Origin: Mobula birostris
Taxonomy: Eukaryota
DNA: 64,000 bases
Direction of reading: 5' to 3'
Assembly (NCBI RefSeq): GCF_030028105.1
Contig: NC_092378.1
Span: 45,046,400 to 45,110,399, forward strand
Shown here: piece by piece, positions 5,236-57,995 of the stretch
Numbering within the stretch: the first letter of the stretch is position 1
Layout: every line of letters begins with the position of its first letter
Notes under the pieces: model-generated
The model's database searches: none
What the model was told of the DNA's origin: nothing
Seen by the model: only the letters and a program-made list of their open reading frames with translations
Made by a program: the position numbers and the translations under genes

Positions 5236-7180
5236 AAGGAAGAGAAAATCTGCAGATGCTGTGATCCAAGCAACACATAGAAAGTGCTGGAGGAACTCAA
5301 CATCCAGGCAGTATCTATGGAAAAAAGAACCGTCGACGTTTTGGGCCGAAACCCCTCATAAAAGCTGCGGAGTAGAGTTAATAGGTGGGGGGAGGGAAAA
5401 GGAGAGCAGAAGGTGATAGGTGAAACCTGAAAGGGGAGGGATGAAGTAAAGAGCTGGGAAGTTGATTGATTGAAGAGACAGAAGGCCATGGAAGAAAGAA
5501 AAGGGGGCAGGAACACCAGAGGGAGGCAATGGATAGGCAAGGAGATAAGGTGAGAGAGGGACAAAGGGATAGGAAATGGTAAAACAGGGAGCATTACCAG
5601 AAGATTAAGAAATTGATGTTCATGCCATCAGGTTGAAGGCTACCCAAATGGAATATAAGCTGTTGTTCCTCTAACCTAAGTGTGGCCACATCACGACAAT
5701 GGAGGAGGCCATGGATGGACATATCGGAATGGGAAAGGGAAGTAGAATTAAAGTGTGTGGCCACTGGGAGATCCTGCTTTTTCTGGTGGACGGAGCGTAG
5801 GTGCTTGGCAAAGCAATCTCACCTGGAAGGACTGTTTTGGGCCCTGAATGGTAGTAAAGGAGGAGGGGTAGGGGCAGGTGTTGCACAGGTTCTGCTTGCA
5901 AGGGTAAGTGCCAGGAGGGAGATCAGGGGGAGGGATGAATGGACAAGGGACTAGCATAGGGAGCAATCCCTACAGAAAGCAGGAAGTAGCAGGGGGAGGG
6001 AATGGTGGTGGGATTCAGTTGGAGGGGGAGGAACTTTTGGAGAATTATGTGCTGGACGCGGAAGCTGGTGGGGTGGTAGCCGAGGACAAGAGGAACCCTA
6101 CACCTGGTGTGGTGGCGGGAGGATGGGGTCAGAGCAGACGTGAAATGGAAGAGATGCAGTTGAGGGCAGCATTGATGGGGGAGGAAGGGAAGCCCCTTTC
6201 TTTGAAAAAGGAGGACATCTCCTTTGTTCTGGAATGAAAAGCCTCATCTTGAGAGCAAGTGCGGCAGAGACGGAGGAATTGAGAGAAGGGGTTGGCGTTT
6301 TTACAGGTAACAGGGTGGGCTGAGGTATAGTCCAGGTAGCTGTACGAGTCTGTGGGTTTATAACAGACATCAGTCTCCAGAGATAGAGACAGTAAGATCG
6401 AGAAAGCGGAGAGAGGTGTCAGAAATGGACCAGGTAAATTTGAGGGCAGGGTAGAAGTTAGAGGCAAAGTGGATGAAGTCAATGTGTTCAGCAAGGGTGC
6501 AAGAAGAAGTACCAATGCAGTCGTCGATGTAGCGTAGGAAAAAGGCGGGACGGTCACCAGTGTAGGCTTGGAACGTAGATTGTTCCACGTAGCCAACAAA
6601 CAGGCAGGCATAGCTGGCACCCATGTAAGTGTCCATGGCTACCCCTTTTGTCTGAAGGAAGAGGGAGAAGCCAAAGGAGAAATTATCTAGAGTGAGGACA
6701 AGTTCTGCTAGGCAGAGCAGAGTGGTGGTGGAGGGGAACTGGTTAGGTCTGTTGTCCAGAAACAAAAACAGAGAGTTTTGAGGCCTTCCTGATGGGGGAT
6801 GGAGGTGTATAGGGACTGGACATGCATAGTAAAAATAAGATGATGGGGGCCAGGGAACCTGAAATCATTGAAAAGATCCAGAGCCTGTGAAGTGTCAAAC
6901 AGGTGGGAAGGGACTGAACCGGGGGAATAAAACAGAGTCAAGGTATGCCGATATGTGTTCAGTGGCAGCAGGAACAAGCTGAAACAATGGGTCTACCTGG
7001 ACAAGCTGGTTTGTGGATCTTGGGTAGGAGGTAGAAACAGGAGGTGCGGGCTGCGGGAACTGTGAGGTTGGTGGCAGTGGATGGGAGATTCCCAGGGTCA
7101 ATAAGGTTGGTAATGGTGTGGGAAACAACGGCCTGGTGATCCTTAGTGGGTCGCTGTTCCAGGGGTAAGTAAGAGAAGGT
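5236..7180 (-). mobile_element. Penelope-like retroelement, 5'-truncated and frameshifted (RT plus part of the GIY-YIG region plus terminal repeat)
   Basis: ORF 6370..6765 has QTKGVAM...YACLFVGYVEQ...FLRYIDD; ORF 6129..6620 has YKPTDSYSYLDYTSAHP; both are PLE RT signatures. The 3' repeat is shared with the other PLE copies. Confidence 0.9.
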
Positions 7181-19106: not shown

Positions 19107-19272
19107 TTTAAAATGCAAACAACAGGAATTCTGCACATGCTGGAAATTCAAGCAACACACATCAAAGTTGCTGGTGAACGCAGCAGGCCAGGCAGCATCT
19201 CTACGTCGACTGTACCTCTTCCTAGAGATGCTGCCTGGCCTGCTGCTTTCACCAGCAACTTTGATGTGTGTT
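19107..19272. mobile_element. 166-bp Penelope-derived hairpin insertion with 14-bp TSD
   Basis: Arms 19154-19203 and 19223-19272 pair 49/50; acatccttaagtat at 19093-19106 and 19273-19286. Confidence 0.88.
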
Positions 19273-19964: not shown

Positions 19965-22900
19965 AGGATGATTTAGCAGATGAGTGCGTGGCTGAGTGCA
20001 GGGGGCAGGGTTTCGGATTTCTGTATCATTGGGATCTCTTCTGGGGTAGGTATGATCTGTACACAAGTGACGGGTTACAACTGAACCCAAGGAGGACCAA
20101 TAACCTTGCAGGTAGGTTTGCTAGAGCTATTGAGGAGGGTTTAAACTAATTTGGCAGGGGGATGGGAACTGGAGTGATATGGCTGAGGATAAAGCAGTTG
20201 GTATACAACTAGATAGAGCGTTGTGAGATAGGCAGATAATAGGGCAAAATTGCTGTCAGTGGAATGAGTTAAAGTGTAACAAGGGGTCAAAATTGAACAG
20301 GGTGATGAAGACAGGACTGAAGATGTTATATTTGAATGTACACAGTATACGTAATAAGGTAGATGATCCTGTAGCACATTCAGAGTTTGGCAACTATGAT
20401 GTTGTGGGCATTACTGAGTTGTGGCTGAAAGAAGATCACGGTTAGGAGCTTAACATCCAAAGATATACGTTGTATCAAAAGGACATGTAGGTAGGCAGAA
20501 GGGTGGCTCTCTTGGTAAAAAATAAAATCAAAATCTTAGAAAGAGGTGACATAGGATCGGATGATCTAGAATCCTTGTGGGTAGGATTAAGAAACTGCAA
20601 GGGTAAAAAGACCCTGATGGCAGTTATATACAGGCCTCCAAACAGTAGACAGGATGGTACCTACAAATTATAATGGGAGATAGAAAACGCATGACAAGAA
20701 AGCAATGTTACGATAGTCATGAGGGATCTCAATATGCAGGTAGAATGGGAAAATCAGGTTGGTGCTGCATCCCAGGAGAGAGAAGTCTTATAATGTCTAT
20801 GTGATGGTTTTTTTTACAGCAGCTTGTGGAAGAGTCCAATTAGGGGAAATGCTAATCTGGATTAGCTGCTGTGTAATAAACAAGATCTGATTAAGGAACT
20901 TAAAGTAAAGGAACCCTTAGGAGGCCATGATCACAATATGATAGACTTCACCATGCAACTTGAGAGGGAGAAGCTAACGTCAGATGTATCAGTATTACCG
21001 TGGAGTAAATGGAATTACAGAGGCATGAGAGAGGAACTGGCGAAGATTGATTGGAAGGGGTCACTAGCGGGATTGACAGCAGAGCAGCAAGGCTGGAGCC
21101 TCTGGGAGCAATTCGGAAGGTGCAGAACACATACATCCCAAAGAAGAACTAGTATTCCAAGGGCAGGATTACGCAACCTGACTGACAAGGGAAGTCAAAA
21201 ATAATATAGAAGCAAAAGAGAGGGCGTGTAAAAGGAGAGAGGAGAAGATGGCGGCGCGACGCAGCGCTTGTGGCCGTTTCGAATGAATATCGATATGTGT
21301 AACTAGGGGTGCTGTGCACAATCCAGATTTGAAGGGGACAGCTGTGAAGTGCAGAGAAACATCTGGAGAAACTTCTGAAATGCCTGCTTCACTGCCGCTG
21401 CTACTGTGTGATCAAGAATCTCCAGAGACGAAGGCCCCAAATCCTCAGCTTTGCGTATCGCCTGTTACCGGGGCCGGGGTCGAAGCACTCGGCAGAGGTG
21501 GTGCTGGGTGCTCAGTGTCGAATAGGTGGTCGGAGGCTCGGAGTTTTTCGGACGGACTCGGAGTTGGACTGTGGTCGGATGCTTCTGGGACGCTGCATCG
21601 GCAAGTTGGCGGTGTTGGAAGTTTACCATCTGCGTGAGATGATGGGACTTTCGAGAGACTCTGGGATTTTTACTGTGCCATGGTCTGTTCTTATCAAATT
21701 ACAGTATTGCTTTGCACTGTTGTAACTATATGTTATAATTATGTGGTTTTTGTTAGTTTTTAGGTCAGTTTGTCATGTGTTTTCGTGATATCATTCTGGA
21801 AAAACATTTTTATCATCTCTTAATGCACGCATTACTAAGCAACAATAAAAGGGGACTGCGTGTCCTCATAATCATAATAGAGCAAAAATAGTGCAAAGTT
21901 AGCAGATTGGGAAGCTTTTAAAAATCAACACAAGATAACCTAAAAAGCAATAAGGGAAAAAATGAAATATGAAGTAAGCTAGCCAAAAATAACAGAGGAT
22001 ACCGAAAGAATTTTTTCAGATATAAAGAGTAAAAGTGAGGCAAGAGTAGAAGCTGGACCACTGGAAAATTATGCTGGAGAGGTAGTAATGGTGGACAAAG
22101 AAATGGCAGATGAACTAAACGAGTATTTTGCATCCGTCTTCACTGTGGAAGACACGAGCAGTATGCCTGAAGTTCAACAGTGTCCAGGCATAATTGAAAT
22201 TACTTGGGAGAAGGTGCTTGAGAAACTGAAAGCTCTGAGGGCAGACAGGTGACCTGGACCAGAAGGACTACACCTCATGGTTCTGAAAGAGGTAGCTGAA
22301 GAAGCTGTGGAAGCATTAGTAATGATCTTTAAAGAATCATTAGATTTTAGCATAGTTGCGGAGGACTGGAAAATGGCAAATGTCACTCTATACTTCAGGA
22401 AAGGAGGGAGTGAGAAGAAAGGAAATTATAGGCCAGTTAGCATGACCTTGGTGCTTGGGAAGATGTTGGAGTCGATTGATAGGGATTAGGTTTTGTGTTA
22501 CTTGGAAGCACATGATAAATAAGCCAAAGTCAGCACAGTCTGCTAAAAGGAAAATCTTGCCTGACAAACCTGTTGGAATTCTTTGAGGAAATAGCAAGCA
22601 GGATAGACAAAGGACAATCGGTGGATGTTGTGCATTTGGATTTTCAGAAGGCCTGTTATAAGGTGCCACACATGAGGATGTTTAACAAGAGCTCATGGTA
22701 TTACAGGAAGGATACTAGCATGGATAGAGCAATGGCTGATTGGTAGAAGGCAAAGAGTGGGAATAAAGGGCGGTTTTTCTGGTTGGCTGCCAGTGACAGG
22801 AGTCTGTGTTGTGACTGCTTCTTTTTACATTATATGTCAATGATTCAGATGACAGAATCGAAGGCTTTCTGGCCAAGTTTGTGGACGTTATGAAGATAGG

Positions 22901-23730
22901 TGGAGGGGCAGGTAGTGCTGAGGCAGCAGGGAGGCTGTTGAAGGACTGAGATAGATTAGGAAAATGGGCAAGGCAATGGCAGATGGAATAGAGTGTCGGG
23001 AAGTGTATGGTTTTCCATTTTCGTAAAAGGAACAAAAGCGTAGACTATTTTCTAAACAGGTAGAAAATTCAAAAATCTGAGGTGCAAAGTGACTTGGGAA
23101 TCCTTAGCAGGAGTGCTTGAAGGTTAATTTGCAGGTTGAGTCAGTGGTGAAGAAGGCAAATGTAATAATACCATTCATTTCAAGATGACTAGTATATAAA
23201 AACAAGGATTTAATGCTGAGGCTTTATAAGACACTGGTGAGCTGACATTGGAGAGGGTTCAAAGGAGATTCATGAGAATAATTCCAGGATGAAAGGGTTA
23301 ATATATGAGGAGTGATTGATAGCTCTAGGCCTATAATCAATGGAATTTAGTGGAATGAAAGGACATCTCATTGAAACCTATCAAATGTTGAAAGGCATAG
23401 ATAAGAGTGATGTGGAGAGATGTCTCCTATGCAGGAAGAATCTAGGACCAGAGCACACAGCCTCAGAATAGAGGGACAGCCATTTAGAATGGAGATGAGG
23501 GTAGGGGATCTGTGGAATTCAATGCCACTGGCAGCTGTGGAAGCCGGGTCACTGGGCGTATTTAAGATGGAGGTTGATAGGTTCTTGATTAGTCAGGGCA
23601 TCAAAGGTTACAGGGAGAATTCAGAAGAATAGGGTTGAGAGGGCTATGGATCAGCCATGATAAAATGGCAGAGCAGCCTTGATGGGCCAAATGGCCTAAT
23701 TCTGCTCCTATCCTTTATTGTCTTATAGTT
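19965..23730 (+). mobile_element. CR1/HER1-like LINE, long but decayed (end of esterase ORF1, APE endonuclease, RT, 3' end)
   Basis: Motifs EDWKMANVT..F.KG....KGNYRPVS.T.V.GKMLES and VDVVHLDFQKA; 3' gatgggccaaatggcctaattctgctccta hairpin; many stops. Confidence 0.9.
21231..21878 (+). mobile_element. About 650-bp CpG-rich non-coding retroposon inserted into the CR1
   Basis: Interrupts CR1 at ...agggcgtgta|...|agagcaaaaata; starts gagaagatggcggcgcgacg; ends aataaaaggggactgcgtgtcctc(ataatc)n; no LINE ORF. Confidence 0.7.
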
Positions 23731-24962
23731 GTGCAGCCAGCAAAGTGTGTTTGCAAAGTGTCTCTGCAGTGACATTTTCAATCTGACTGGTCTTATTTAT
23801 TCAACAGACAATCAGGTTCACTAAAATCCTTCTCCTGAAACCCATTAAAGGGACAACATTCAAACTTTATTCTTCATCCTCATTGAGACCTGTGGCCTCA
23901 CCAACCACCTCACTTACTCCTGGACTGCTTTGACTGTGAAGATTAGGGAAGTTGGCCTAACACTACACTCAAGGGGAAGAAACTTCATCCTTCAATTCCC
24001 CCCACCTTAGGGGAGAAGGCAGAGCAGATTTCCATTCCAGTCTCTCCCAGACAAAGGCAAACAGAGGCTGCACTCATGTCCTTATGATGCAGTTCCCCGT
24101 TACGTTTTGATGTTTTCATGTTCATGTAGCAATTAAGATAATCTAATCTTCTGCCAGGATCTCTTTACTGTACTGTTGAGGGTCTCTGTGGCCCATCACA
24201 TAACAGTCTGTCCAGTCCTCCTAACCTCTGGGAACACCCTCCTACTTTCTCTCCCATTGCTGCAATATCCATTCATTCTGTAGCAACACTCCCCTAAAGC
24301 CAGAAGAGTGTAATCTGGTTTCTCTCTTTAAGAACTAGCTACACAGATTGCACCTGCTGGGCTACACACCAACAGCTACAAAAACTTGTAACACATCAGC
24401 AGGGAACATCAACAAAGTCAATCTGAGGGCAGCTGTACACAAGGGACTGTGAACCTTACAGACAAGGTTTTCACAGTTCTTATAACTTTCACAGAGTCAT
24501 GATGACCTACAATAATACATTAATATCAGAAACAGAAGTGTGGAACAATTTCTAAGCCATTGTTTTAATTCCTGGTCTTGAGTTTGGAATATCAATACAA
24601 ACATGCATGCCTCGGCCCGTGCTTCATTTCAAACCCTGCACTGGAATATGGTTTATGAACCCCAATCTCTATGAGTTTTAAGATATCTGTCTTCCAGTTT
24701 GGTTCTGTGTTGGAATGAGACATCACAGAGCAGCAGATTGGCACAATGTCTCAGGAACCAGTCTTGTGATAACCTACTCCTTCAGCTGGTAACTAGTTCC
24801 AGCAGACCCTGTCAATAATGTTGCATACTTATCAGATATAGGAATTATGGATTTTTCATGCAAAGATTTTCACCACAGGAATGTCTTTTTAAAAGATAGT
24901 TATGTTCTTAAATATTGAGCTTGAAGTCCCCAAAGTTGCACTACCAAGTTCTTGCCTCCTAC

Positions 24963-25090
24963 CTGTGACTGAAAGAGTGCCAGTGCTGTTTGCTTTTCCT
25001 CTGTTGTTCTGTGCAAAGCAGGTATAGCTCCCCTCATCATCCCGGGTGACACCTCGAATCTCCAGAGTGCCATTGGGCCAAACAGATATC
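24963..25090 (-). CDS. CNTN1: Contactin-1-like exon (128 nt): ISVWPNGTLEIRGVTRDDEGSYTCFAQNNRGKANSTGTLSVT
   Basis: ORF 24889..25155(-); cccacag|G acceptor, ACAG|gtagga donor; YTCFA.NNRGKANSTGTL as in CNTN1. Confidence 0.93.
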
Positions 25091-25803
25091 CTGTGGGAAG
25101 GGTAGAAAATGTGGTAAATATCTATAACTGCACTGTACTTAATGATGAGAAACAAAATTAGCTGTATCGGATTTTATGGTCCTCTGACACAACTGTATCT
25201 GAACTCTATCACCAGATTCCCTCATGTCGTTTAAATCCTTTTCACCTTGGGAATGTAGGCAGCTTAGGGAAAATAATTTATTCAAGAATAAATTAACTTG
25301 ACTCAATAGACCGCTTTCACGCTTTCATTTTTGGACATGAATATAAATTGCATGTGCTGGGATGCATGATGTCTTTTTATTTAATAGTGCTACGCCTCTT
25401 AAACTGTCTACAAAATCTCACCCTTCCATCCCACCTTCTTCCTGAATGCAGAGCGTCATCGTCTTTGGGAAACCAGTTTGGTATGCCATCACAGCCCTTG
25501 TACTTTATTTGTCTACCCGCACTTCACTTTTTCTGTAACAGTAACACAAAACTCTGGGTTGTAATTTGTCCCCCTTTTGTACAACCTCAATGTACCTCTA
25601 CGGCCTCACTGAGGTTTTGTATAACCTCGTTGTACTTATGTATGGCACTTTCACTGAATCTCAGTATATGTGACAACAATAAAGCAATTACCACTGTGCA
25701 AAGACAAAACAACAGGAATTCTGCAGATGCTGGAAATTCAAGCAACACACATCAAAGTTGCTGGTGAACGCAGCAGGCCAGGCAGCATCTCTAGGAAGAG
25801 GTA

Positions 25804-25841
25804 CAGTCGACGTTTCAGGCCAAGACCCTTCGTCAGGACTA
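25804..25841 (-). ncRNA. Minimal type-I hammerhead ribozyme motif in the PLE terminal repeat (sense to the contactin pre-mRNA)
   Basis: Minus strand UAGUC-CUGACGA-A-GGGU(CUUG)GCCU-GAAAC-GUC^GACUG: core boxes intact, helix I UAGUC/GACUG, GUC cleavage triplet. Confidence 0.75.
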
Positions 25842-27320
25842 ACTGAAGGAAGAGTGAGTAAGGGATTTGAAAGTGGGAGGGGGAGGGGGAGATCCTAAAT
25901 GATAGGAGAAGACAGGAGGGGGAGGGATAGAGCCAAGAGCTGGACAGGTGATAGGCAAAAGGGATATGAGAAGCTAATGGGACAGGAGGTCCGGGAAGAA
26001 AGACAAGGGGGGGGACCCAGAGGATGGGCAAGGGGTATAGTGAGAGGGACAGAGGGAGAAAAAGGAGAGTGAGAGAAAGAATGTGTATATAAAAATAAAT
26101 AACGGATGGGGTACGAGGGGGAGGTGGGGCATTAGCGGAAGTTAGAGAAGTCAATGTTCATGCCATCAGGTTGGAGGCTACCCAGACAGAATATAAGGTG
26201 TTGTTCCTCCAACCTGAGTGTGGCTTCATCTTTACGGTAGAGGAGGCCGTGGATAGACATGTCAGAATGGGAATGGGATGTGGAATTAAAATGTGTGGCC
26301 ACTGGGAGAAATTAAAATGTGTGGCCACTGGGAGAAAAAGCTCTCAAACGCATCTCCCCCATTTCACGCACATCTGCTCTCACTCCACCCTCCCGCCACC
26401 CCACTAGGAATAGGGCTCCCCTGGTCCTCACCTACCACCCCACCAGCCTCCGGGTCCAACATATTATTCTCCGTAACTTCCGCCACCTCCAACGGGTCCC
26501 ACCACTAAGCACATCTTTCCCTCCACCTCCCCGCTTTCCGCAGGGATCGCTCCCTACGCGACTCCCTTGTCCATTCATCAGCCCCCATCCCTCCCCACTG
26601 ATCTCCCTCCTGGCACTTATCCTTGTAAGCAGAACAAGTGCTACACATGCCCTTACACTTCCTCCCTTACCACCATTCAGGGCCCCAGACAGTCCTTCCA
26701 GGTGAGGCAACATTTCACCTATGAGTCAGCTGGGGTGATATACTGCATCCGGTACTCCCGATGTGGCCTTCTATACATTGGCGAGACCCGACACAGACTG
26801 GGAGACTGCTTTGCTGAACACCTACGCTCTGTCCGCCGGAGAAAGTAGGATCTCCCAATGGCCACACATTTTAATTCCACATCCCATTCCCATTCTGACA
26901 TGTCTATCCACGGCCTCCTCTACTGTAAAGATGAAGCCACACTCAGGTTGGAGGAACAACACCTTATATTCCGTCTGGGTAGCCTCCAACCTGGTGGCAT
27001 GAATATTGACTTCTCTAACTTCCGCTAGTGCCCCAACTCCCCCTCGTACCCCATCCGTTATTTATTTTTATACACACATTCTTTCTCTCTCTCTCCTTTT
27101 TCTCCCTCTGTCCCTCTCACTATACCCCTTGTCCATCCTCTGGGTTCCCCCCCCACCGTCTTTCTCCCCGTGCCTCCTGTCCCATGATCCTCTCATATCC
27201 CCTTTGCCAATCACCTGTCCAGTTCTTGGCTCCATCCCTCCCCCTCCTGTCTTCTCCTGTCATTTTGGATCTCCCCCTCCCCCTCCCACTTTCAAATCTC
27301 TTACTAACTCTTCCTTCAGT

Positions 27321-27358
27321 TAGTCCTGACGAAGGGTCTCGGCCTGAAACGTCGACTG
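27321..27358 (+). ncRNA. Minimal type-I hammerhead ribozyme motif in the PLE terminal repeat
   Basis: tagtc-ctgacga-a-gggt(ctcg)gcct-gaaac-gtc^gactg; predicted cleavage after 27353. Confidence 0.75.
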
Positions 27359-28409
27359 TACCTCTTCCTAGCGATGCTGCCTGGCCTGCTGCGTTCACCA
27401 GCAACTTCTATGTGTGTTGAGGGAATTCTGTACTTGCTGACTGTGCCCATGAACTGATGCATACCAGCCACTGCCTTTGTGAGTAGTACAGCCCTCTGAT
27501 CAGTGACTCTCTAATGATGATCCCTGTACCACAGAGCCCCTAAGATAGGACCTTACGAACACTCCAACGGCAACCCAAGCAGAGTCTATAGAAAGGTCAA
27601 CAGCAGAATGGAATGAAGCACGTTGGGGTGACCTGGCGTCATGAACCCATAATAAGCATGGACTGTAGAGTGTAACAGCTGAGCTAGCGGTGGTTCATGC
27701 TTCTCCTGCAGCTGAATGAGCGGTGCAGTCATTGTTCATCAGAGTCCAGCAGGCTCTTTAGCCCTTCCAGTCAGCACTGACCACCAACACTAACAACATT
27801 TCACTCTCCCCACATCCTCTTCCACTCCTCACAGATTCTGCCCGTCACCTAAACACTGGAGGCTAATTAACCTACCAACCTTCACATCTCTGGGAAGTGG
27901 AAGGAAATCCACATGGTCACCAAGAGAACAAGTGAACTCCTCAAAGGCAGGGTGGAAGGTCAGGGTTGAACTTAGGTCGCTAGAGCTGAGAGGCAGCAGC
28001 TCTATTTGCTGCCCCACTGCGCCATGAAAGGTCTTCACTGAAGATCGGTCCATGCACTGGAACTGGTGAGAGCAGCAACTAAAAACAAAACTTACTCTTA
28101 ATATTTAGCTTGTTTTCAGAGGGATAAGGGCTTTTGATTTCCTATGTATGTATAAACAAAGGCAGACACATACAAGTCCAACCCAATGGGATGGCCCATG
28201 TTGAATCTGAAGCCGTGGACTTCATGAGAGAATACACAGACACTAACACATGATGTTTCCTGACGAAGCATCTTGCCTCAAAACACCAATTCTTCCTTTC
28301 TTTCCATACATGCTACCTGACCTGCTGAATTCCTCCAGCATTTTGTGTGTGTTTCTCTGGATTTCCAGCATCAGTAGAATCTCTTGTGTGTCTACATGAT
28401 GCTTGATGG

Positions 28410-28950
28410 AAAGTTCCTGGGTGTCAATATCTCTGAGGATCTAACTGGGACCCAACATATCGATGCATCTACGAAGAAGGCACGACAGCAGCTATTTTTC
28501 ATTAGGAGTTTGAGGAGATTAGCTATCTCACCAAAGACACTCGCAAATTTCTACAGTTTACCGTGGAGAGCATTCTAATTGTCTGGTATGACGGTGGGGG
28601 GGAGGGGGCCTACTGCATAAGATCAAAATAAACTTAGTCAGCTTTAGCATGAGCACTAGGCTCCGTAAAATCCAGGACACCTTCAAGGACGATGCCTCAA
28701 AAAGACGACACCATCATAAAGGGCCCCCATTATCCAGGTCATTTCTTGTTCTCATGGCTACCATCAGGGAGGAGGGAGAGAAGCCTGAAGGCATGAAGGC
28801 ACATACTCATCGATTCAGGAACAGATTCTTCCCCTCTACCATCTGATACATATGTATATTCACAGTTTTTTATTATTATGTATTGCATTGTACTGCTGCC
28901 GCAAAGACAGAAACTTTCATGACATACCATATGCCAGTGAAATTCTGACC
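28410..28950 (+). mobile_element. Rex1/Babar-like LINE 3' fragment
   Basis: KFLGVNISEDL...KKARQ.LFF.R.LRR...TL.NFY and RFRNRFFPSTI motifs. Confidence 0.75.
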
Positions 28951-29270
28951 CTGAGATTTTGATTGCATTGTCATTGACCTTAAGGCACCATCTTTTTTCC
29001 CTCATGAGAGAGCTGTTAACAGCCCTTGATGAAAATGCTGCAGCTGCTTCATTAATGTGCTTGATTTAACAAAAATATTGTCAAGGAATAGAGAACGGGG
29101 AGGTTCGGAAGGGGAGAGACAGAACATTAAGACTGACAAATTATGACAGAGATGTTGATAGTGAGACTATGTGACAGATAGACCCAGAGTGAGTTCGAGA
29201 CCGAGTGAGGAAGAGAAACAGAGAGACTGAGACACAGTGAAATGGAGACAACTGTGTTCAGGCCTCATGA

Positions 29271-30490
29271 AGCATAGAAACACAGAAACACAGAAAACCT
29301 ACAGCACAATACAGGCCTTTCAGCCCACAAAGCTGTGCCAAACATGTCCTTACCTGAAAAGTTACCTAGGGTTACCCATAGCCCTCTATTTTTCTGAGCT
29401 CCATATACCTGTCCAGGAGTCTCTTAAAAGACCCTATCATATCCACCTCCACCACCGTCGCCGGCAGCCTATTCCATGCACTCGCCACTCTCTGCATAAA
29501 AATTTTACCCCTGACATCTCCTCTGTACCTACTTCCAAGCACCTTAAACCTGTGTCCTCTCGTGCTAGCCATTTCAGCCCTGGGAAAAAACCTCTGACTC
29601 TCCACACGATCAATGCCTCTCATCGTCTTATACACCTCTATCAGGTCATCTCTCATCCTCCGTCGCTCCAAGGAAAAAAGGCCGAGTTCATTCAACCTAT
29701 TCTCATAAGGCATGCTCCCCAATCCAGGCAACATCCTTGTAAATCTCCTCTGCACCCTTTCTATGGTTTCCACATCCTTCCTGTAGTGAGGCGACCAGAA
29801 CTGAGCACAGTACTCCAAGCGGGGTCTGACCAGGGTCCTATATAGCTGCAATATTACCTCTCGGCTCCTAAACCCAGTCCCACAATTGATGAAGGCCAAT
29901 GCACTGTATGCTTTCTTAACCACAGAGTCAACCTGTGTAGCAGCTTTGAGTGTCCTATGGACTCAGACCCTAAGATCCCTCTGATCCTCCACACTGCCAA
30001 GAGTCTTACCATTAATATTATATTCTGACATCATATTTGACCTACCAAAATGAACCACCTCACACTTATCTGGATTGAACTCCATCTGCCACTTTTTAGC
30101 CCAGTTTTGCATCCTATCAATGTCCCACCGTAACCTCTGACAGCCCTCCACACTATCCACAACACCTCCAACCTTAGTGTCATCGGCAAATTTACTAACC
30201 CATCCCTCCACTTCTTCATCCAGGTCATTTATAAAAATCACGAAGAGTAGGGGTCCCAGAACAGATCCCTGAAGCCCACCGCTGGTGACCAACCTCCATG
30301 CAGAATATGACCCGCCTACAACCACTCTTTGCTTTCTGTGGGCAAGTCAGTTCTGGATCCACAAAGTAATGTCCCCTTGGATCCCATGCCTCCTTACTTT
30401 CTCAATGAGCCTTGCATGGGATACCTTGTCAAATACCCTGCTGAAATCCATACAAACTGCATCTACGACTCTAGATGTAGTGTATATGGA
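29271..30490 (-). mobile_element. CR1/HER1-like LINE 3' part (RT C-terminus, 3' UTR, 8-mer tail)
   Basis: ORFs 29963..30325 (QGSVLGPLLFVIFINDLD...KFADDTK) and 29372..29923; catagaaa/cacagaaa tandem tail. Confidence 0.92.
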
Positions 30491-32618
30491 ACTTCGCATG
30501 ACTGGAACTTCCACCAGCAACCAAAAGTGCTGTCTTGTGAGTCACCATTGAACGTGAGACAGAGAGTGAAGGACTGATGGAAATAGAGATACAAGTAGAG
30601 AGATAAAAATACTTAATATACATGAGAAAATAAAGCGGAAAAAGGAATGATAGGGAGCATGAGGCAGAAGAGATGGTAGAGAGGCAGAAAGATCAGGGAT
30701 TTAGAAAAGAAAACAGAAACAGAGATAGAGAATGAGAAATGGAGTAAGGCAATGGTGAGATGGAGAAAGAATTAGTGAAGATAGAGGCAATGTGTGAGTG
30801 AAGAGAAAGAGAGGGTGAGGCAGAATGAACATAATGGAAAGTTAGAGAAAGGGCCAGGTGGAGTGTAGAATAAGTTCAAGAGGTCGTATCTGTCCATTAA
30901 AGGGAGCATTGCAGTTGCCTTGGTTCAGTAGTTGGTGAAGTAAAAACAATTTTGTTAAAGTATCATTAATGTGATCTTAAATAATATTTTCTATTCTACT
31001 AAAAAGCAGGCTTTCCAGTGATAAGATCAGAAAGTGCTTGCCTCTCACATAGTGCTGACATATCATGAGGGGATGGGGTTTTCTTGCTACTCAGAGCAAA
31101 AGACTGCCTTGTCAATCAGCTGACTGGAGTCACCCTAAGGCTCAAGCACAATGTCCCAAGTCAGAGTTCCTTGTCTTCTGTGTTAGGAAGTGAAGAAAGA
31201 AATAAAAAATATTCAACAGCAGCTCTTCAGAATCAAACTGTGTGACGGGGGGGGGGGGGGGGGGGACCAGCAGCTGTGAGAGGAATCTCCTGTTCTTACT
31301 GAGTAACAGGAGGTTGTGCCTCTTTGCCATATCTGTCCTTCGTATCCCCCACCCCCCTGCTATGACTACTCAGACCCATGGCACTTAGCATCTCTCCTAA
31401 GCATTCCAGTCCAGTTTTCTGTGTTGTGAAGTGCCCAATGCAGTCAGCATAGGGCAGGAGATGAACGAAAGAAGTATGAGAGAAGCATGTGCTCCTTCAG
31501 TCGTTTATGCTGGGTGCCTCTGCGTACTCCTAATGAAGGGTTTGGAATTGACACATGCATATCCACACCTGCTTTAGACTTTCTCTTGTGTTTCTCTACT
31601 TCCACCTTTACTTGTCCGGGACCATGATCACTTTTGTCATTTGTTGACTCCTCATGTCCAGCCATTTTCTGCTTTCCCTCCCTTCTGCCAAAATACTGTG
31701 CAGTTTTCCTATCCTCTCAGCTGACAAAGTGCCCATTGACCTGCCACTTCCTGCCAGTCACATTCCAAGGAGCTTCACTCGATTGCAGAACTGTTTTATT
31801 TGGCTCTCAAACTGTCCACTCATATCCTCAGCATGATTGCAGTGACTGTACCCTATCCGCCTTTCACCTCCATCTAGTGCCACAAGTGAAAGACCAGAAA
31901 TACAAGCACAGTCTTGTGGACTCGACCATTTTTCCAGCACAGACCCATGTGTTCCGCCACTTTCCTGGATTTAAAAACAGAAACTTTTAGAAATACTCAG
32001 CAGGTCAAGCAGCATCAATGGAGAGAGAAAATTGAAGTTTCAAATCAGAACTCAGTATGACAAAGAATCTTAAAACGTTAGCTCTGATTTTTTTCCCCAT
32101 AAACAATACCTGACCTGCAGAGTGTTTCCATTGTTTTGTATTTTCACTGCACATTTCCAGCACCTGAATCTATTTGATCCTCTCATTGATCTGTCCAGTC
32201 CTTAGAATAATGCCATCCAGAGAGTGGTCACCTTCCTACTCAATGATAATGTGTTGCAAGCTAGCCAGTAGATGGCACAAACCAAGGTCCAAAATAGTAA
32301 TGCTAAGGTCAAGGTTCATTTCTTTCTGCAGGATTACCATTGCCCAGTCAGATTTTATGTTGAAATTAGAACTAGACACTGAACAGGGTGAATAAATGGC
32401 AGCCAAATAATGACATTATCCATTTGCCATAGCTTCTCAAATTAACTTTGACTTTAACACTATATTTATAAACGCTACATGTTCCTCATTCATTATTTTA
32501 TGGAATCATTGGCTGAAAGGCATTTACAAGATCAGAAGCTACCAGGTTGAATTGTTTTAAGAAATGCCATGGCTGACAGATTGCTCATGCCACTGGGAGG
32601 CATCTCCAATCTACTGAC

Positions 32619-32769
32619 CTAGAGTTATTCGTGAGCAGTTCTGTGCCCTTGCTCCAAATGAATGTTGGCTTTGGTGCAGCCTTGGGCTTGCACTCGATGA
32701 TTGCTTTGCCTCCTCTGGCCCCTAAGAGCTTTTTCTTCACTGGATTCAGCCTGAAGTCCGGTGCCAAAG
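32619..32769 (-). CDS. CNTN1: Contactin-1-like exon (151 nt), Ig5: (A)[50 protein letters not shown]
   Basis: ORF 32585..32767(-); ctttcag|CT acceptor, AG|gtcagt donor; [12 protein letters not shown] matches human CNTN1. Confidence 0.93.
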
Positions 32770-33616
32770 CTGAAAGAAAACAGAGTAAGTTCAGAAAACC
32801 AAAACAATTGTGAAGCCTTTCACTTCTTCTTCCAACCTTTCCTTCCCTCCAAACAACATAGTTCCATTTTGTTTGTGTTAAATCACAGACAATGAAAGAA
32901 AAGGAGATGAGAAAGTTTAGGTTGGAACTATGCTACTCTAAATGGACATTCAACCCCTCAGCCTCACACAGACATTCTATTACACCATGGATGACTTGTG
33001 AAGAAAAAGAATTTCAAGATGTATATTGTAACCATTTCTCTGTCATTAAATGTACCTATTGAACTCCTAATCCACATTAGCATTATCTATGTTATGCTAA
33101 AAACCTTAAACAGAATCATACTGCCGAGAGCCCATATGCTCTTCAGCCTTGCAACATTGCTCTTAAAAATGCACCAATTAATCTCCCTCTTGCTCCTTCC
33201 TGGAAAAACAGAAACCATTAGTTTAAAAATCCTCTAAAATTTACAACTAAATCTGCCTCTATTACCCATTCAAGCCAGTTGAACTCAAATTCCTTATACC
33301 TCCCTCTGGTTTGGCTGTGAGTTATCTTAACTCTGTGTCATTTGGTCAGCAATAAATTTACTCCTGCACATTGTTTACTCTCTAAATTTCAGTAATTATT
33401 AACTCCAGCTTCTTCGCTCTGCAGTACTGAAGTCCCAAACTCCCTGGTACTTTGCATCTTCTCTCCAATCTCTGCATGGTCTTGATCCATTCCCAAAACT
33501 GATCAGTGTGTTCCAGCTGAGATCTAAGCAACGATCTTAAAGTCTTTAGCAGAACTCAGAACCAGCGATTTTCCTTTTAACTAAACATTCTGCCGTACTT
33601 TGTGATGAATACCAAC

Positions 33617-33746
33617 CCAAAACCTTGAGCTCTGCATTGGAATACAAGGATCCATGCTTGTTCTCTGCCTGGCATTGATACATTCCAGCGTCTCCCAGAG
33701 TCAGTTTCGAAATTCGCAGTTCCCCTCTGTTTATCCGGTATCGGCC
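33617..33746 (-). CDS. CNTN1: Contactin-1-like exon (130 nt), Ig4 second half: [43 protein letters not shown]
   Basis: Manual translation; gtacctag|GGC acceptor, TTGG|gttggt donor; AGMYQC.AEN..G..Y.NAELK.L motif; phases 0/1 fit the neighbours. Confidence 0.9.
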
Positions 33747-34206
33747 CTAGGTACAGTTAAGGATAGGATTACTTTCTTTGTAAATCTCAGTCCAACCAAT
33801 CATCAATGCCAGCCTTTATATGCCACGTCAGCTTCCTGTCATCTTTTCACGTCTTAACCCGTCACACCAGCTGCAGAAATAAAGGACCATCAAAACTTGC
33901 AGAGCTTTACATGATTCACAGCAACACACTGAAGTAAAGTCACTTTTACATCGAGGACCTGAGAAAGAAAGAGGCACACATTTGTAATTGCATAAAAATA
34001 AACTTGAAACTGTTAATCAAGGGAATGGGATGTCCTTCAGACTGAAGAAAGTGCTTGGTACAAAGACAGAAACATAACACTTCCAATCAACAGTTCACAC
34101 AAAATATCCAAAGAGACGTGCACTTTTCAGCTTTATGCTGTGTACAAGCGGGCACATGGCAGCAACAACAGAAATGATGAACCTCAGTGCAGGCACAGCT
34201 TCCTAC

Positions 34207-37144: not shown

Positions 37145-38454
37145 CTGTCAGAGTTGGGCATGTAAAAATTCTTTGTACGTGATTATTGACATCCTTATTG
37201 GCTGACTAAATGATTATGTTTACTATTAGAGGAAACAGCGTCATAAATGTCATCAGTTTTCCTGATTTATTATCCGAGCAGAAATGACCAAGCTTTGTAT
37301 TTCTGATAGAGAAGTATGTTCTCTCTGCCAAAATCCTTTGATAGAGTCCAATAACAAACAAGAGAAAATCTGCAGATGCTGGAAATCCAAACAACATACA
37401 TGAAATGCTGGAGGAACTCAGCAGGCCAGGCAGCATCTATAGAAAAGAGTACAGCAGCGTTTTGGGCTGAGACCTTTCATCAGGACCTTAATTCAATCAA
37501 AAATCCTTTGATAGAATTATGATGGAGAAATGGGATTGACATTTCAGTGATTATTGTTTCAGATCTAGAGTGTTGCTTGACTTTCTTGACGTTGGTAACA
37601 CTTGGTTCAAGAGATTTGATAAATGCAACTGGCAGTAGTAGTGAGCATAGTCTCTGGTTGCAGGGAGCTCAGTATAACAAACAATCTCAAGCATTGTGCA
37701 TCTTGACAAGTCAGAAGTGTGCAGTCCTGTAAGAAGAGGACTATAGTCACCAAGAGTTGAAAAGAAACTAAACTTCTCATAAAGCTCAGGCATTTCCTTA
37801 GCCAGTCTGTTTTGAGAGCCAAGTCCTGTAAAATAAATTGGTATGGCTTTCTTTTCTATTTAGGTCATTGCATAAGACTTGGAAAAGAGGTTTGCTGTGT
37901 GTTGTTGAAAGAAAATATATCTTCTCTAGCCAACTAGAAGACACCCAACAGGGGTGAAAATGAGAAATGAGAAAAAGTCAGTGGGGCTTAATTATAAAAG
38001 CTTTAGATTTTCAGAGCTGTTTAGAAAACCTAAAGGAACTTTTTTTTTTAGAATGAACATGAAAGGACAGTGCTAAACTGAAGCAAGAAAGACAATGACA
38101 AGCAACATATATACATTTTTATCCTGAACATTCAACTGCACAGGAGTCATCACCCTCAAAAGTACAAGGGGTAGAGAGTCAAGAAACACAGGAGATGCTG
38201 CAGATCTGAAATAGTCATCACTGAAATACCAATCTCATTTCTCCACCATCTGCATCAAAGGATTTTGACTGAGAGAACATGCTTCTCTATCAGAAATACG
38301 AAGCTTGATCATTTCTGCTTAGATAATAAATCAGTAAAACTGAGAACATTCATGGCATTGTTTCCTCTAATAGTAAATATAATCATTTAGTCAGAGCTGA
38401 CAGAATTAGTCAATAATTCTGTGCAAAGACTTGTCAAATGCCCAACTCTGACAG
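37145..38454. mobile_element. Fold-back/MITE-like element with roughly 280-bp terminal inverted repeats
   Basis: Ends ctgtcagagttgggcat... / ...atgcccaactctgacag; arm homology continues to about 37590 and 38178 once a PLE insert is removed from the left arm. Confidence 0.75.
37346..37499 (-). mobile_element. PLE terminal fragment with 16-bp TSD inside the fold-back element
   Basis: aaaatcctttgataga at 37330-37345 and 37500-37515; contains a decayed hammerhead (minus strand gtcctgatgaaaggtctcagcccaaaac). Confidence 0.8.
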
Positions 38455-43468: not shown

Positions 43469-43565
43469 ACACACATCAAAGTTGCTGGTGAATGCAGCAG
43501 GCCAGGCAGCATCTCTAGGAAAAGCTACAGTCCACGTTTCGGGCCGAGACCCTTCGTCAGGACTG
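43469..43565 (-). mobile_element. PLE terminal fragment with a hammerhead whose cleavage triplet is GUG
   Basis: Minus strand cagtc-ctgacga-agggtctcggccc-gaaac-gtg-gactg; flanked by gctgaatcctgg on both sides (likely TSD). Confidence 0.8.
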
Positions 43566-53865: not shown

Positions 53866-54435
53866 GTATGTCTATCCACGGCCTCCTCTACTGTCAAAAT
53901 GAAGCCACGCTCAGGTTGGAGGAACAACACCTTATGTTCCGTCTGGGTAGCCTCCAACCTGATGGCATGAACATTGACTTCTCTAACTTCCGTTAATGTC
54001 CCTCCTCCCCTTCGTACCCCATCTGTTATTTATTTATTATTATTAATTTATTTTTCTCTCTTTCTCCTTTTTCTCTCTCTGTCCCTCTCACTATACAGTA
54101 CTCCTTGCCCATCCTCTGGGCTTCCCCCCTCCCCCTTTCTTTCTCCCTAGGCCTCCCGTCCCATGATCCTCTCATATCCCTTTTGTCAATCAACTTTCCA
54201 GCTCTTAGCTCCATCCCTCCCCCTCCTGTCTTCTCCTATCATTTTGGATCTCCTCTCCCCCTCCCACTTTCAAATCTCTTACTAGCTCTTCTTTCAGTTT
54301 GTCCTGACGAAGGGTCTTGGCACAAAACATCGACTGTACCTCTTCCTAGAGATGCTGCCTGGCCTGCTGCGTTCACCAGGATCTTTTATGTGTGTTGCTT
54401 GAAATACCAGCATCTGTAGATTTGCTCGTGTTTGT
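53866..54435 (+). mobile_element. PLE 3' fragment/terminal repeat (hammerhead GAAA box mutated)
   Basis: Nearly the same sequence as 26900-27419; gtcctgacgaagggtcttggcacaaaacatcgactg; flanked by gactgttcagtat on both sides; interrupts an old CR1. Confidence 0.85.
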
Positions 54436-57194: not shown

Positions 57195-57995
57195 GACACC
57201 GATGCTGAGGTAAACTCTCCACTCTCCACTTTCCACAGGGTTCCAGTGATTCCAGTGTCCATTCATTCTACCCCATTAATCTCCCTCCCGGTGTATACTG
57301 TATCCATGTAAGCGTCAGAAATGCTTACCTGCCTACTCACCACCTCCCTGACCTCCAATCAGAACCCCAGCAGGTGAGGCAACACTTCATCTGCAAATTT
57401 GCTGAGGCCGTCTAGTGTATCTGGTGCTCCTGATGTGGCCTCCTCTACATTGCTGAGACCCAATGTAAATTGGACGACTGCTTTGTTGAGCACCTCCGCT
57501 TCATCTGCAAAAAGTACAATTTCCTGGTGGCCAACCATTTTAATTCCTATCCCCACTCCCATTCCAACATATCAGTCCATGACCTCCTCTGCTGCCACAA
57601 TGAGACCACTCTCACTGTGGAAGAGCAACACCTCATATTCAGTCTGGGTAGCCTCCAACCTGATGGAATGAATATCGATTTCTCCTCCTGGTAATTTTTT
57701 CTTATAGTTTCCTTTTCTCCTCCGTCTTATTTCTTCTTCTATTTCCTACTCTGACCTCTCACCTGTTTTCCTCACCTGCCAATCACCTCCATCTGATGCC
57801 CCTCCTACTTCCCTTTCTCCCATGGTCCACTTTTCTCTCCTGTCAGATTCCTTCTTCTCCAATCCCTTACCTTTCTCACCCACTGGCTTCACTATCACCT
57901 TCTAGCATGACCTCCTTCCCTTCCCTCCACCTTTTTATTCTGGTGTCTTTCCCTCCTCATTTTCAGTCCCTAATGAAGGTCTCAGCCCAAAATAT
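57195..57995 (+). mobile_element. Older PLE 3' fragment (GIY-YIG remnant)
   Basis: DCFVEHLR...VANHFNS..HSHS...EEQHLIFSLGSLQPDGMNIDF. Confidence 0.8.

Follow-up and report, generated by a model that had tools for sequence, protein, structure and literature searches.

Host gene and intron

The DNA analysed in the current work (hereafter the window) is a stretch of 64,000 nt from Mobula birostris (contig NC_092378.1, with positions counted from the first letter of the stretch) and encompasses part of a contactin-1 gene, which spans at least 330 kb and is located on the minus strand. The exon at 24963..25090 (minus), specifying residues 454-496 (Ig domain), has contactin-1 as its best match among solved structures and is 100% identical to the contactin-1-like sequence of Mobula birostris. 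It is preceded by an intron of 7,528 nt with canonical ends (25091..32618, minus), whose flanking exons are joined (25090 to 32619) in contigs of three of four sequencing runs from two studies, one such contig being 7,797 nt in length. These contigs come from rays and point to normal inclusion of the exon, with the provisos that the organisms concerned may lack the insertion described below and that the status of the contigs as RNA is guessed. The run data consist of contigs only, devoid of information on ends, strand or level, and depth over the element represents a repeat pile-up; no contig bridging the insertion edges was seen among the run contigs, which carries no weight either way.

A Penelope-like insertion with two divergent arms

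Upstream of this exon the intron contains a 5'-truncated Penelope-like element (PLE) of apparent Neptune type (25707..27420), which is composed of two divergent arms with their 3' ends facing outward. The left arm (25707..26335, minus), being in the sense of the contactin pre-mRNA, comprises the end of the endonuclease ORF, the 3' terminal region and a tail. The right arm (26340..27420, plus), being antisense and transcribed first, comprises a linker/GIY-YIG remnant followed by the 3' terminal region. Together they form an inverted repeat (25735-26309 versus 26851-27427) with 34 mismatches and two gap columns over 575/577 nt. A tail of approximately 35 nt is present at the left arm only, and a 26-nt duplication is located within that arm at 26284-26335. 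The left edge at 25707 corresponds to the commonest 3' end of the element family, positioned at +101 from the predicted ribozyme cut site, and coincides with a loose-end position in the sequencing-run contigs; no target-site duplication was found at the insertion edges. Elsewhere in the window there are other fragments derived from this family and from older PLE families (5273-6164, 19145-19272, 37392-37486, 53868-54397 and 57271-57684), and the host intron also contains, at 28387-28850 and 29231-30550, what we take to be L2-type and CR1-type LINE 3' ends.

The coding remnant of the right arm consists of a broken linker and GIY-YIG sequence running to a stop codon at 27026-27028, its frame being disrupted by an in-frame stop at 26846-26848 and by frame breaks, and none of the three broken endonuclease frames of the window was matched by Pfam. 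The identity of the element was taken from longer genome copies rather than from the window frames. From a protein search of the genome, which yielded 135,770 candidates at first look, 150 were scored. Three of the 13 long copies retrieved contain frames (828, 759 and 746 aa) in which DKG, RT, CX4CxxC and GIY-YIG motifs are present, each frame stopping just upstream of the same terminus that bears the ribozyme motif. For two long copies (L068 and L070) Pfam returned RVT_1 with E values of 1e-4 and 3e-3 and GIY-YIG with E values of 8e-4 and 6e-4, matches which are weak and all under Pfam's curated cut-offs, yet which occur in the expected order in one ORF. In the window itself the linker frame reads CKQNKCYTC, which fits the CX2-5CxxC pattern between RT and endonuclease (EN). 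The attribution of the arms to Penelope terminal repeats, as made in a sequence-only reading of this DNA, was thus borne out by the RT and GIY-YIG ORFs of longer copies, and the element is probably a Neptune-type EN+ PLE, the clade being assigned by motif only.

Minimal hammerhead motifs in both arms

Each arm carries a minimal type-I hammerhead motif, the sense copy being located at 25804..25841 (minus; predicted cut between 25809 and 25808) and the copy antisense to the gene at 27321..27358 (plus; predicted cut between 27353 and 27354). The plus-arm motif (27321-27358) has the sequence TAGTC CTGACGA AGGGTCTCGGCCT GAAAC GTC GACTG, and the minus-arm motif (25841-25804) is identical except for TCTTGG in loop II. 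Both arms contain the CUGANGA and GAAA boxes, a helix I of 5 bp (UAGUC/GACUG, the outer pair being U.G) and a GUC triplet preceding the predicted cut, in agreement with the NUH rule; an extra base after A9 and a purine-pyrimidine closing pair of helix II are also found. Helix III is represented only by the palindromic ACGU (15.2-16.2), with no loop. Since the gene is on the minus strand, it is the left-arm motif that has the sense of the contactin pre-mRNA, as had been proposed, and its predicted scissile bond is positioned 718 nt upstream of the exon starting at 25090.

Both motifs possess a U at position 11.1, and the usual G10.1-C11.1 closure of helix II is absent. Closure may instead be achieved by G.U (4 bp, with a bulged A) or by A-U (3 bp), the G10.1.U11.1 register being favoured in the predicted fold (P=0.96) and resulting in a helix II of 4 bp with two wobbles. 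The earlier description of two intact minimal hammerheads therefore stands as regards their presence and positions, while 'intact' needs a caveat for both arms, since G10.1-C11.1 is described as highly conserved (PMC4209133). This pair is likewise called conserved, or is retained in reduced designs, in two other sources (PMC2837043, PMC544870), the sections of which covered here give no rate for G.U or A-U.

Searches for the motif had a divided outcome: an Rfam scan of positions 20000-34000 returned no hammerhead family at E<=10, whereas a structure descriptor gave 11 matches in 730 kb of gene tiles versus none in the reversed sequence. The Rfam result was taken to reflect a limit of the Rfam models and not as evidence against the motif. 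The descriptor counts, together with the 18,113 exact genome copies of the plus-arm 38-mer (reversed control: 0), argue that the motif is not a product of chance. By sequence and structure, both motifs can be classed with the minimal hammerheads that metazoan PLEs carry in their terminal repeats, as putative ribozymes in which one typical pair is weakened.

Predicted folding and pairing of the sense motif

The 38-mer monomer is predicted to adopt an inactive rod in which G5-A6-C7-G8 is paired with C15.2-G16.2-U16.1-C17 (P 0.98-1.0). This predicted self-locking of the monomer at 25804-25841 arises because the C at N7 makes the CUGACGA box exactly complementary to the CGUC at the cut site. In addition, the ACGU is unable to close a hairpin, which leaves the monomer devoid of helix III. 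A designed double hammerhead made of two 38-mers has a predicted energy of -10.9 kcal/mol versus -32.1 kcal/mol for the best dimer fold. The only near partner of the sense motif is on the opposite strand, no same-strand partner being present in the intron, and the closest comparable sense copy elsewhere in the window is located 17.7 kb upstream, in another intron, with GUG at the triplet position. The short sense copy at 43469-43564 (minus) has C11.1 but a GUG triplet, and is flanked by an apparent 11-bp duplication.

When a minus-strand stretch of 1,901 nt was folded, 552 of the 575 left-arm nucleotides paired with the right arm, all 38 nucleotides of the sense motif (25804-25841) were predicted to be paired to 27321-27358, and forcing helices I and II in this pre-mRNA fold cost about 75 kcal/mol. 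The suggestion that the sense copy might be neutralised by the earlier-transcribed antisense arm matches this prediction, which is derived from a folding model that takes no account of the kinetics of co-transcriptional folding, of protein binding, of editing or of tertiary contacts within the core.

A duplex of this kind could also affect the gene in its own right, as a long dsRNA hairpin acting as an editing substrate or on 3' splice-site kinetics, with the hammerhead being irrelevant. Long intronic inverted repeats are typical ADAR substrates, and the duplex in question, about 575 bp in length and 94% complementary, stops some 620 nt before the acceptor. Divergent pairs are, however, common (56 of 112 ends in the contactin gene sample), and the contigs seen normally contain the exon, so that an effect of the hairpin on this gene is regarded as improbable.

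Genome-wide copies and origin of the inverted build

The insertion is an ordinary dead copy of a young, very abundant PLE, and the locus is not special. A 71-mer search allowing up to three mismatches produced 51,220 genome matches, corresponding to one per ~78 kb, and the young family has accumulated about 1% change per non-CpG site. An adjacent inverted arm is present at 13 of the 29 best-matching other loci. The earlier impression of a notable locus did not hold, as this is one of tens of thousands of copies and shares its inverted build with these 13 of 29 sister loci.

The 3' ends of young copies fall into two groups, at +101 (32/107) and at +62 to +71 (42/107) from the cut site, in a sample of 107 ends that takes in 29 loci selected for their resemblance to the right arm. 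In the insertion described here the left arm extends to +101 and the right arm to about +66. Such a pair of ends is consistent with priming by the two target strands at neighbouring sites on the template, as has been measured for the anole element PAc (PMC11167929). We infer a single integration event for the two arms, with priming by each target strand close to the 3' end of the element. Some short copies are arranged as a duplication, an inverted bit of the tail, the copy and a second duplication, which fits priming from both target strands.

Copies beginning at the cleavage site would constitute a genomic record of cutting; this candidate was rejected, as none of the 33 listed 5' ends is on the cut site (nearest at -2, -5 and +6). 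Given that copies run past this site and that none of the listed 5' ends coincides with it, the templates appear to have been uncut or re-ligated. The 5' ends show a cluster at the 5' edge of helix I, six of the 33 listed starts lying between -32 and -30 relative to the cut site, and three further fold-back junctions at -35/-34 are near the same edge.

Subfamilies and selection on the motif

Genome-wide, exact copies with U11.1 outnumber those with C11.1 by 18,113 to 4,176, the corresponding numbers in tiled copies being 19 and 7. A small new point is that U, rather than C, occupies 11.1 in the subfamily that has been amplified most. Its origin as CpG decay was rejected, because the U11.1 copies are too many for a rate of about 11% per site (CpG sites were changed in 29 of 266 instances at 31 young ends).

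Genome-wide, within the young family, 568 variants of the U4-G5-A6 core triplet were counted versus 781 of a flanking A-G-T triplet, on a basis of 23,212 exact matches (p=7e-9 for the ratio of 0.73). This deficit indicates mild preferential conservation, although context effects, truncation junctions or source-element variants could explain it. At the 31 young ends in the tiles, non-CpG changes were found at 12 of 247 core sites versus 40 of 1,534 flank sites (p=0.064), eight of the 12 core changes being at C3 and some of them at inversion junctions, so that the core has enjoyed no strong protection after insertion.

An older relative of the motif has U-A instead of C-G as the first pair of helix I, a compensatory change which suggests that the motif was probably kept in source elements. 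In this relative (loci L121-L130) helix I reads AGUU/AAC and helix II is longer; among the 100 matches listed, the compensating U was found by eye in 8 of 8 35-nt rows versus 5 of 89 34-nt rows. For the ten old-family loci, hand-picked from the 100 listed matches for the U or a longer spacer, a covariation score of 0.305 was obtained (7 of 500 shuffles), and because they had been chosen by eye for these features the covariation is counted as one event. One of the ten has an EN match, which looks unrelated, and the old family is known here from the motif and not from a PLE ORF. The notion that GUU^AAC variants form a large family was rejected, there being 251 matches only, with most of the 100 listed looking like doubly decayed main-family copies.

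The preferential conservation and covariation expected of a functional motif were consequently recovered in part, as a mild effect in the core and one covariation event in helix I, with no strong protection in young dead copies, and these observations modestly favour selection on the motif across families.

It is conceivable that the motif of the youngest subfamily is inactive even in the source element and persists with the terminal repeat, being dispensable for amplification. The preponderance of U11.1 copies, genome-wide and in tiles, beyond what CpG decay would produce is consistent with this view, as is the extension of copies to 62-101 nt past the cut site with no listed 5' end upon it, which points to uncut templates; elsewhere, hammerhead mutants showed no loss of insertion in vitro (PMC11167929) and Naiads amplify without hammerheads (PMC8557442). 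Helix II is nevertheless still closed by a purine-pyrimidine pair, and the conservation of the core letters and of helix I between families, with a single compensatory substitution of U-A for C-G, suggests that source elements were under selection, at any rate formerly. Dispensability of the motif is accordingly a plausible reading that we hold to fall short of probable.

Sense copies in contactin genes and the prospect of pre-mRNA cutting

Strand counts were made across 830,399 bases of three minus-strand contactin-family genes. Sense and antisense copies numbered 64 and 61 for all ends (n=125), 15 and 19 for young ends (n=34) and 6 and 9 for intact motifs (n=15), with p>=0.6 in each case. 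No sense depletion is therefore visible in these genes, the power for intact copies (n=15) being low; a modest depletion is compatible with the counts, and the 6 versus 9 leans that way.

The contactin-1 gene contains two further intact sense copies. In a later intron (G000:C11:44,933,483-44,934,145, minus) two sense hammerheads belonging to two subfamilies form a tandem with a spacing of 625 nt, and no antisense arm was found next to them. The downstream member contains a mismatch in helix II, and a double hammerhead forced upon this pair is 32 kcal/mol above the best fold. By its arrangement, the tandem pair would be a better dimer candidate than the copy at 25804-25841. An inverted pair with an intact sense motif, resembling the build at 25707-27420, is present in the same gene near 44,920,380 (minus) and 44,922,538 (plus) of G000:C11.

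The sense copy might cut a fraction of nascent contactin-1 pre-mRNA, aided by the element protein or by a second hammerhead acting in trans, and thereby lower or time expression in the manner of CPEB3. It has the right orientation, 718 nt before the acceptor, with both boxes and GUC unchanged and two more intact sense copies in the same gene, and a single PLE hammerhead RNA has been cleaved in vitro with protein assistance (PMC11167929). Element sequence is also abundant in RNA-like contigs, their RNA status being guessed. The predicted burial of the motif in a duplex of ~550 bp, the weak G.U or A-U closing pair of helix II, the unfavourable energy of the double hammerhead, the absence of sense depletion in contactin genes and the origin of the copy from a young repeat family, rather than a conserved single-copy element, all speak against such cutting, which is considered very unlikely.

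Preferred interpretation

The locus is most probably to be understood, with high confidence on our part, as a dead insertion of an abundant PLE with a known minimal hammerhead, the sense copy of which is inactive in the contactin pre-mRNA. During transcription of the intron the antisense (right) arm would emerge first, and the sense arm would then zip onto it to form a hairpin of about 550 bp in which the ribozyme is buried. Even if unburied, the sense monomer is predicted to be unable to form helix III and to lock itself through pairing of G5-G8 with C15.2-C17. If the motif has any real role, this would likely be exercised in tandem RNA of the source element itself, through dimers or with assistance from its protein, and not in the host gene.

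The proposal that the sense copy cuts nascent contactin pre-mRNA was thus not supported, as the motif is predicted to be buried in a duplex and has no tandem partner in this intron, and contactin introns show no visible purge of sense copies. Cutting is made unlikely by the lack of helix III, of a same-strand partner and of freedom from the antisense arm, with which full pairing is predicted; by published findings that a single minimal motif is inactive and that the anole hammerhead is protein-dependent (PMC4209133, PMC11167929); and by the undepleted sense copies and the run contigs that splice across the intron, the RNA status of these being guessed. Cleavage within an intron need not block splicing.

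It would be a long shot that sense intronic copies such as this one or, with greater plausibility, the two tandem hammerheads of the later contactin-1 intron are cut co-transcriptionally with the help of the element protein or of a second copy. If this were true, the ray transcriptome would hold thousands of conditional, transposon-switchable pre-mRNA cut sites, which would be a novel route by which a transposon influences the expression of host genes. As a single locus the insertion matters little. The family, on the other hand, provides a test bed for the role of PLE hammerheads, as its high-copy U11.1 and C11.1 variants differ at a normally conserved pair, and its tens of thousands of young copies would permit a well-powered genome-wide test of intronic sense depletion.

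Comparison with known systems

The presence of a ribozyme motif in intron sense, upstream of an exon of a neural gene, is reminiscent of CPEB3 (PMC10919898) and of RECK and other amniote hammerheads (PMC6155905). Those ribozymes are conserved host elements, self-scission having been measured for CPEB3, whereas the ray motif is one young copy out of tens of thousands, has no helix III and is predicted to be sequestered by pairing. Its identity as a domesticated intronic ribozyme was rejected, since it is not single-copy (18,113 exact matches) and its monomer fold is predicted to be inactive.

Non-LTR retrozymes share with the ray motif a type-I hammerhead of PLE origin (bioRxiv 10.64898/2026.07.22.740005), and one cartilaginous fish was sampled in that study. 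They are tandem non-coding arrays, in contrast to the ray insertion, which is an inverted pair with endonuclease coding sequence; with inverted arms, a coding remnant and no tandem array, identity as a non-LTR retrozyme was rejected.

The PAc Poseidon element of Anolis resembles the ray element in its terminal hammerhead and in that uncut RNA appears to be the template, the two insertion-end groups found here being comparable to the two adjacent internal sites of PAc (Frangieh et al. 2024, PMC11167929). The PAc hammerhead cut only when the protein of the element was added, hammerhead mutants did not affect insertion in vitro, and none of the RNA-seq reads terminated at the cut site (PMC11167929). 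PAc belongs to another clade and its activity was measured, whereas any activity of the ray motif is putative.

Neptune EN+ PLEs are defined by an RT with C-terminal GIY-YIG, DKG and a CX2-5CxxC linker (Craig et al. 2021, PMC8557442). The ray element agrees with them in the order of RT and GIY-YIG, in DKG and the linker, in 5' truncation, in the adjacent inverted copy and in a tail of 30-40 bp at one end only, the inverted truncated copy and the tail being given there as typical (PMC8557442); the clade is assigned here by motif.

The closest resemblance is to the minimal hammerheads described for the pLTRs of metazoan PLEs, which include opposite-strand pairs 100-700 bp apart and of which a single motif was not cleaved while dimers were cleaved to a low extent only (Cervera and De la Pena 2014, PMC4209133). 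Cartilaginous fishes are not among the taxa named in the sections of that report considered here, and a search of the freely accessible literature for hammerheads of shark Penelope elements listed no paper on shark PLEs. As in that report, the ray motifs have both boxes, a helix I of 4-5 bp, an extra nucleotide after A9, a palindromic 15.2-16.2 and no helix III, and they are located in terminal repeats, mostly in truncated copies and in close opposite-strand pairs (PMC4209133). They differ in their short helix II (3-4 bp) and in a dominant subfamily with U11.1, versus the 'highly conserved' G10.1-C11.1 of PMC4209133, and in abundance, with more than 22,000 exact copies of two variants here versus 4,000-9,000 copies for coelacanth and Xenopus (PMC4209133).
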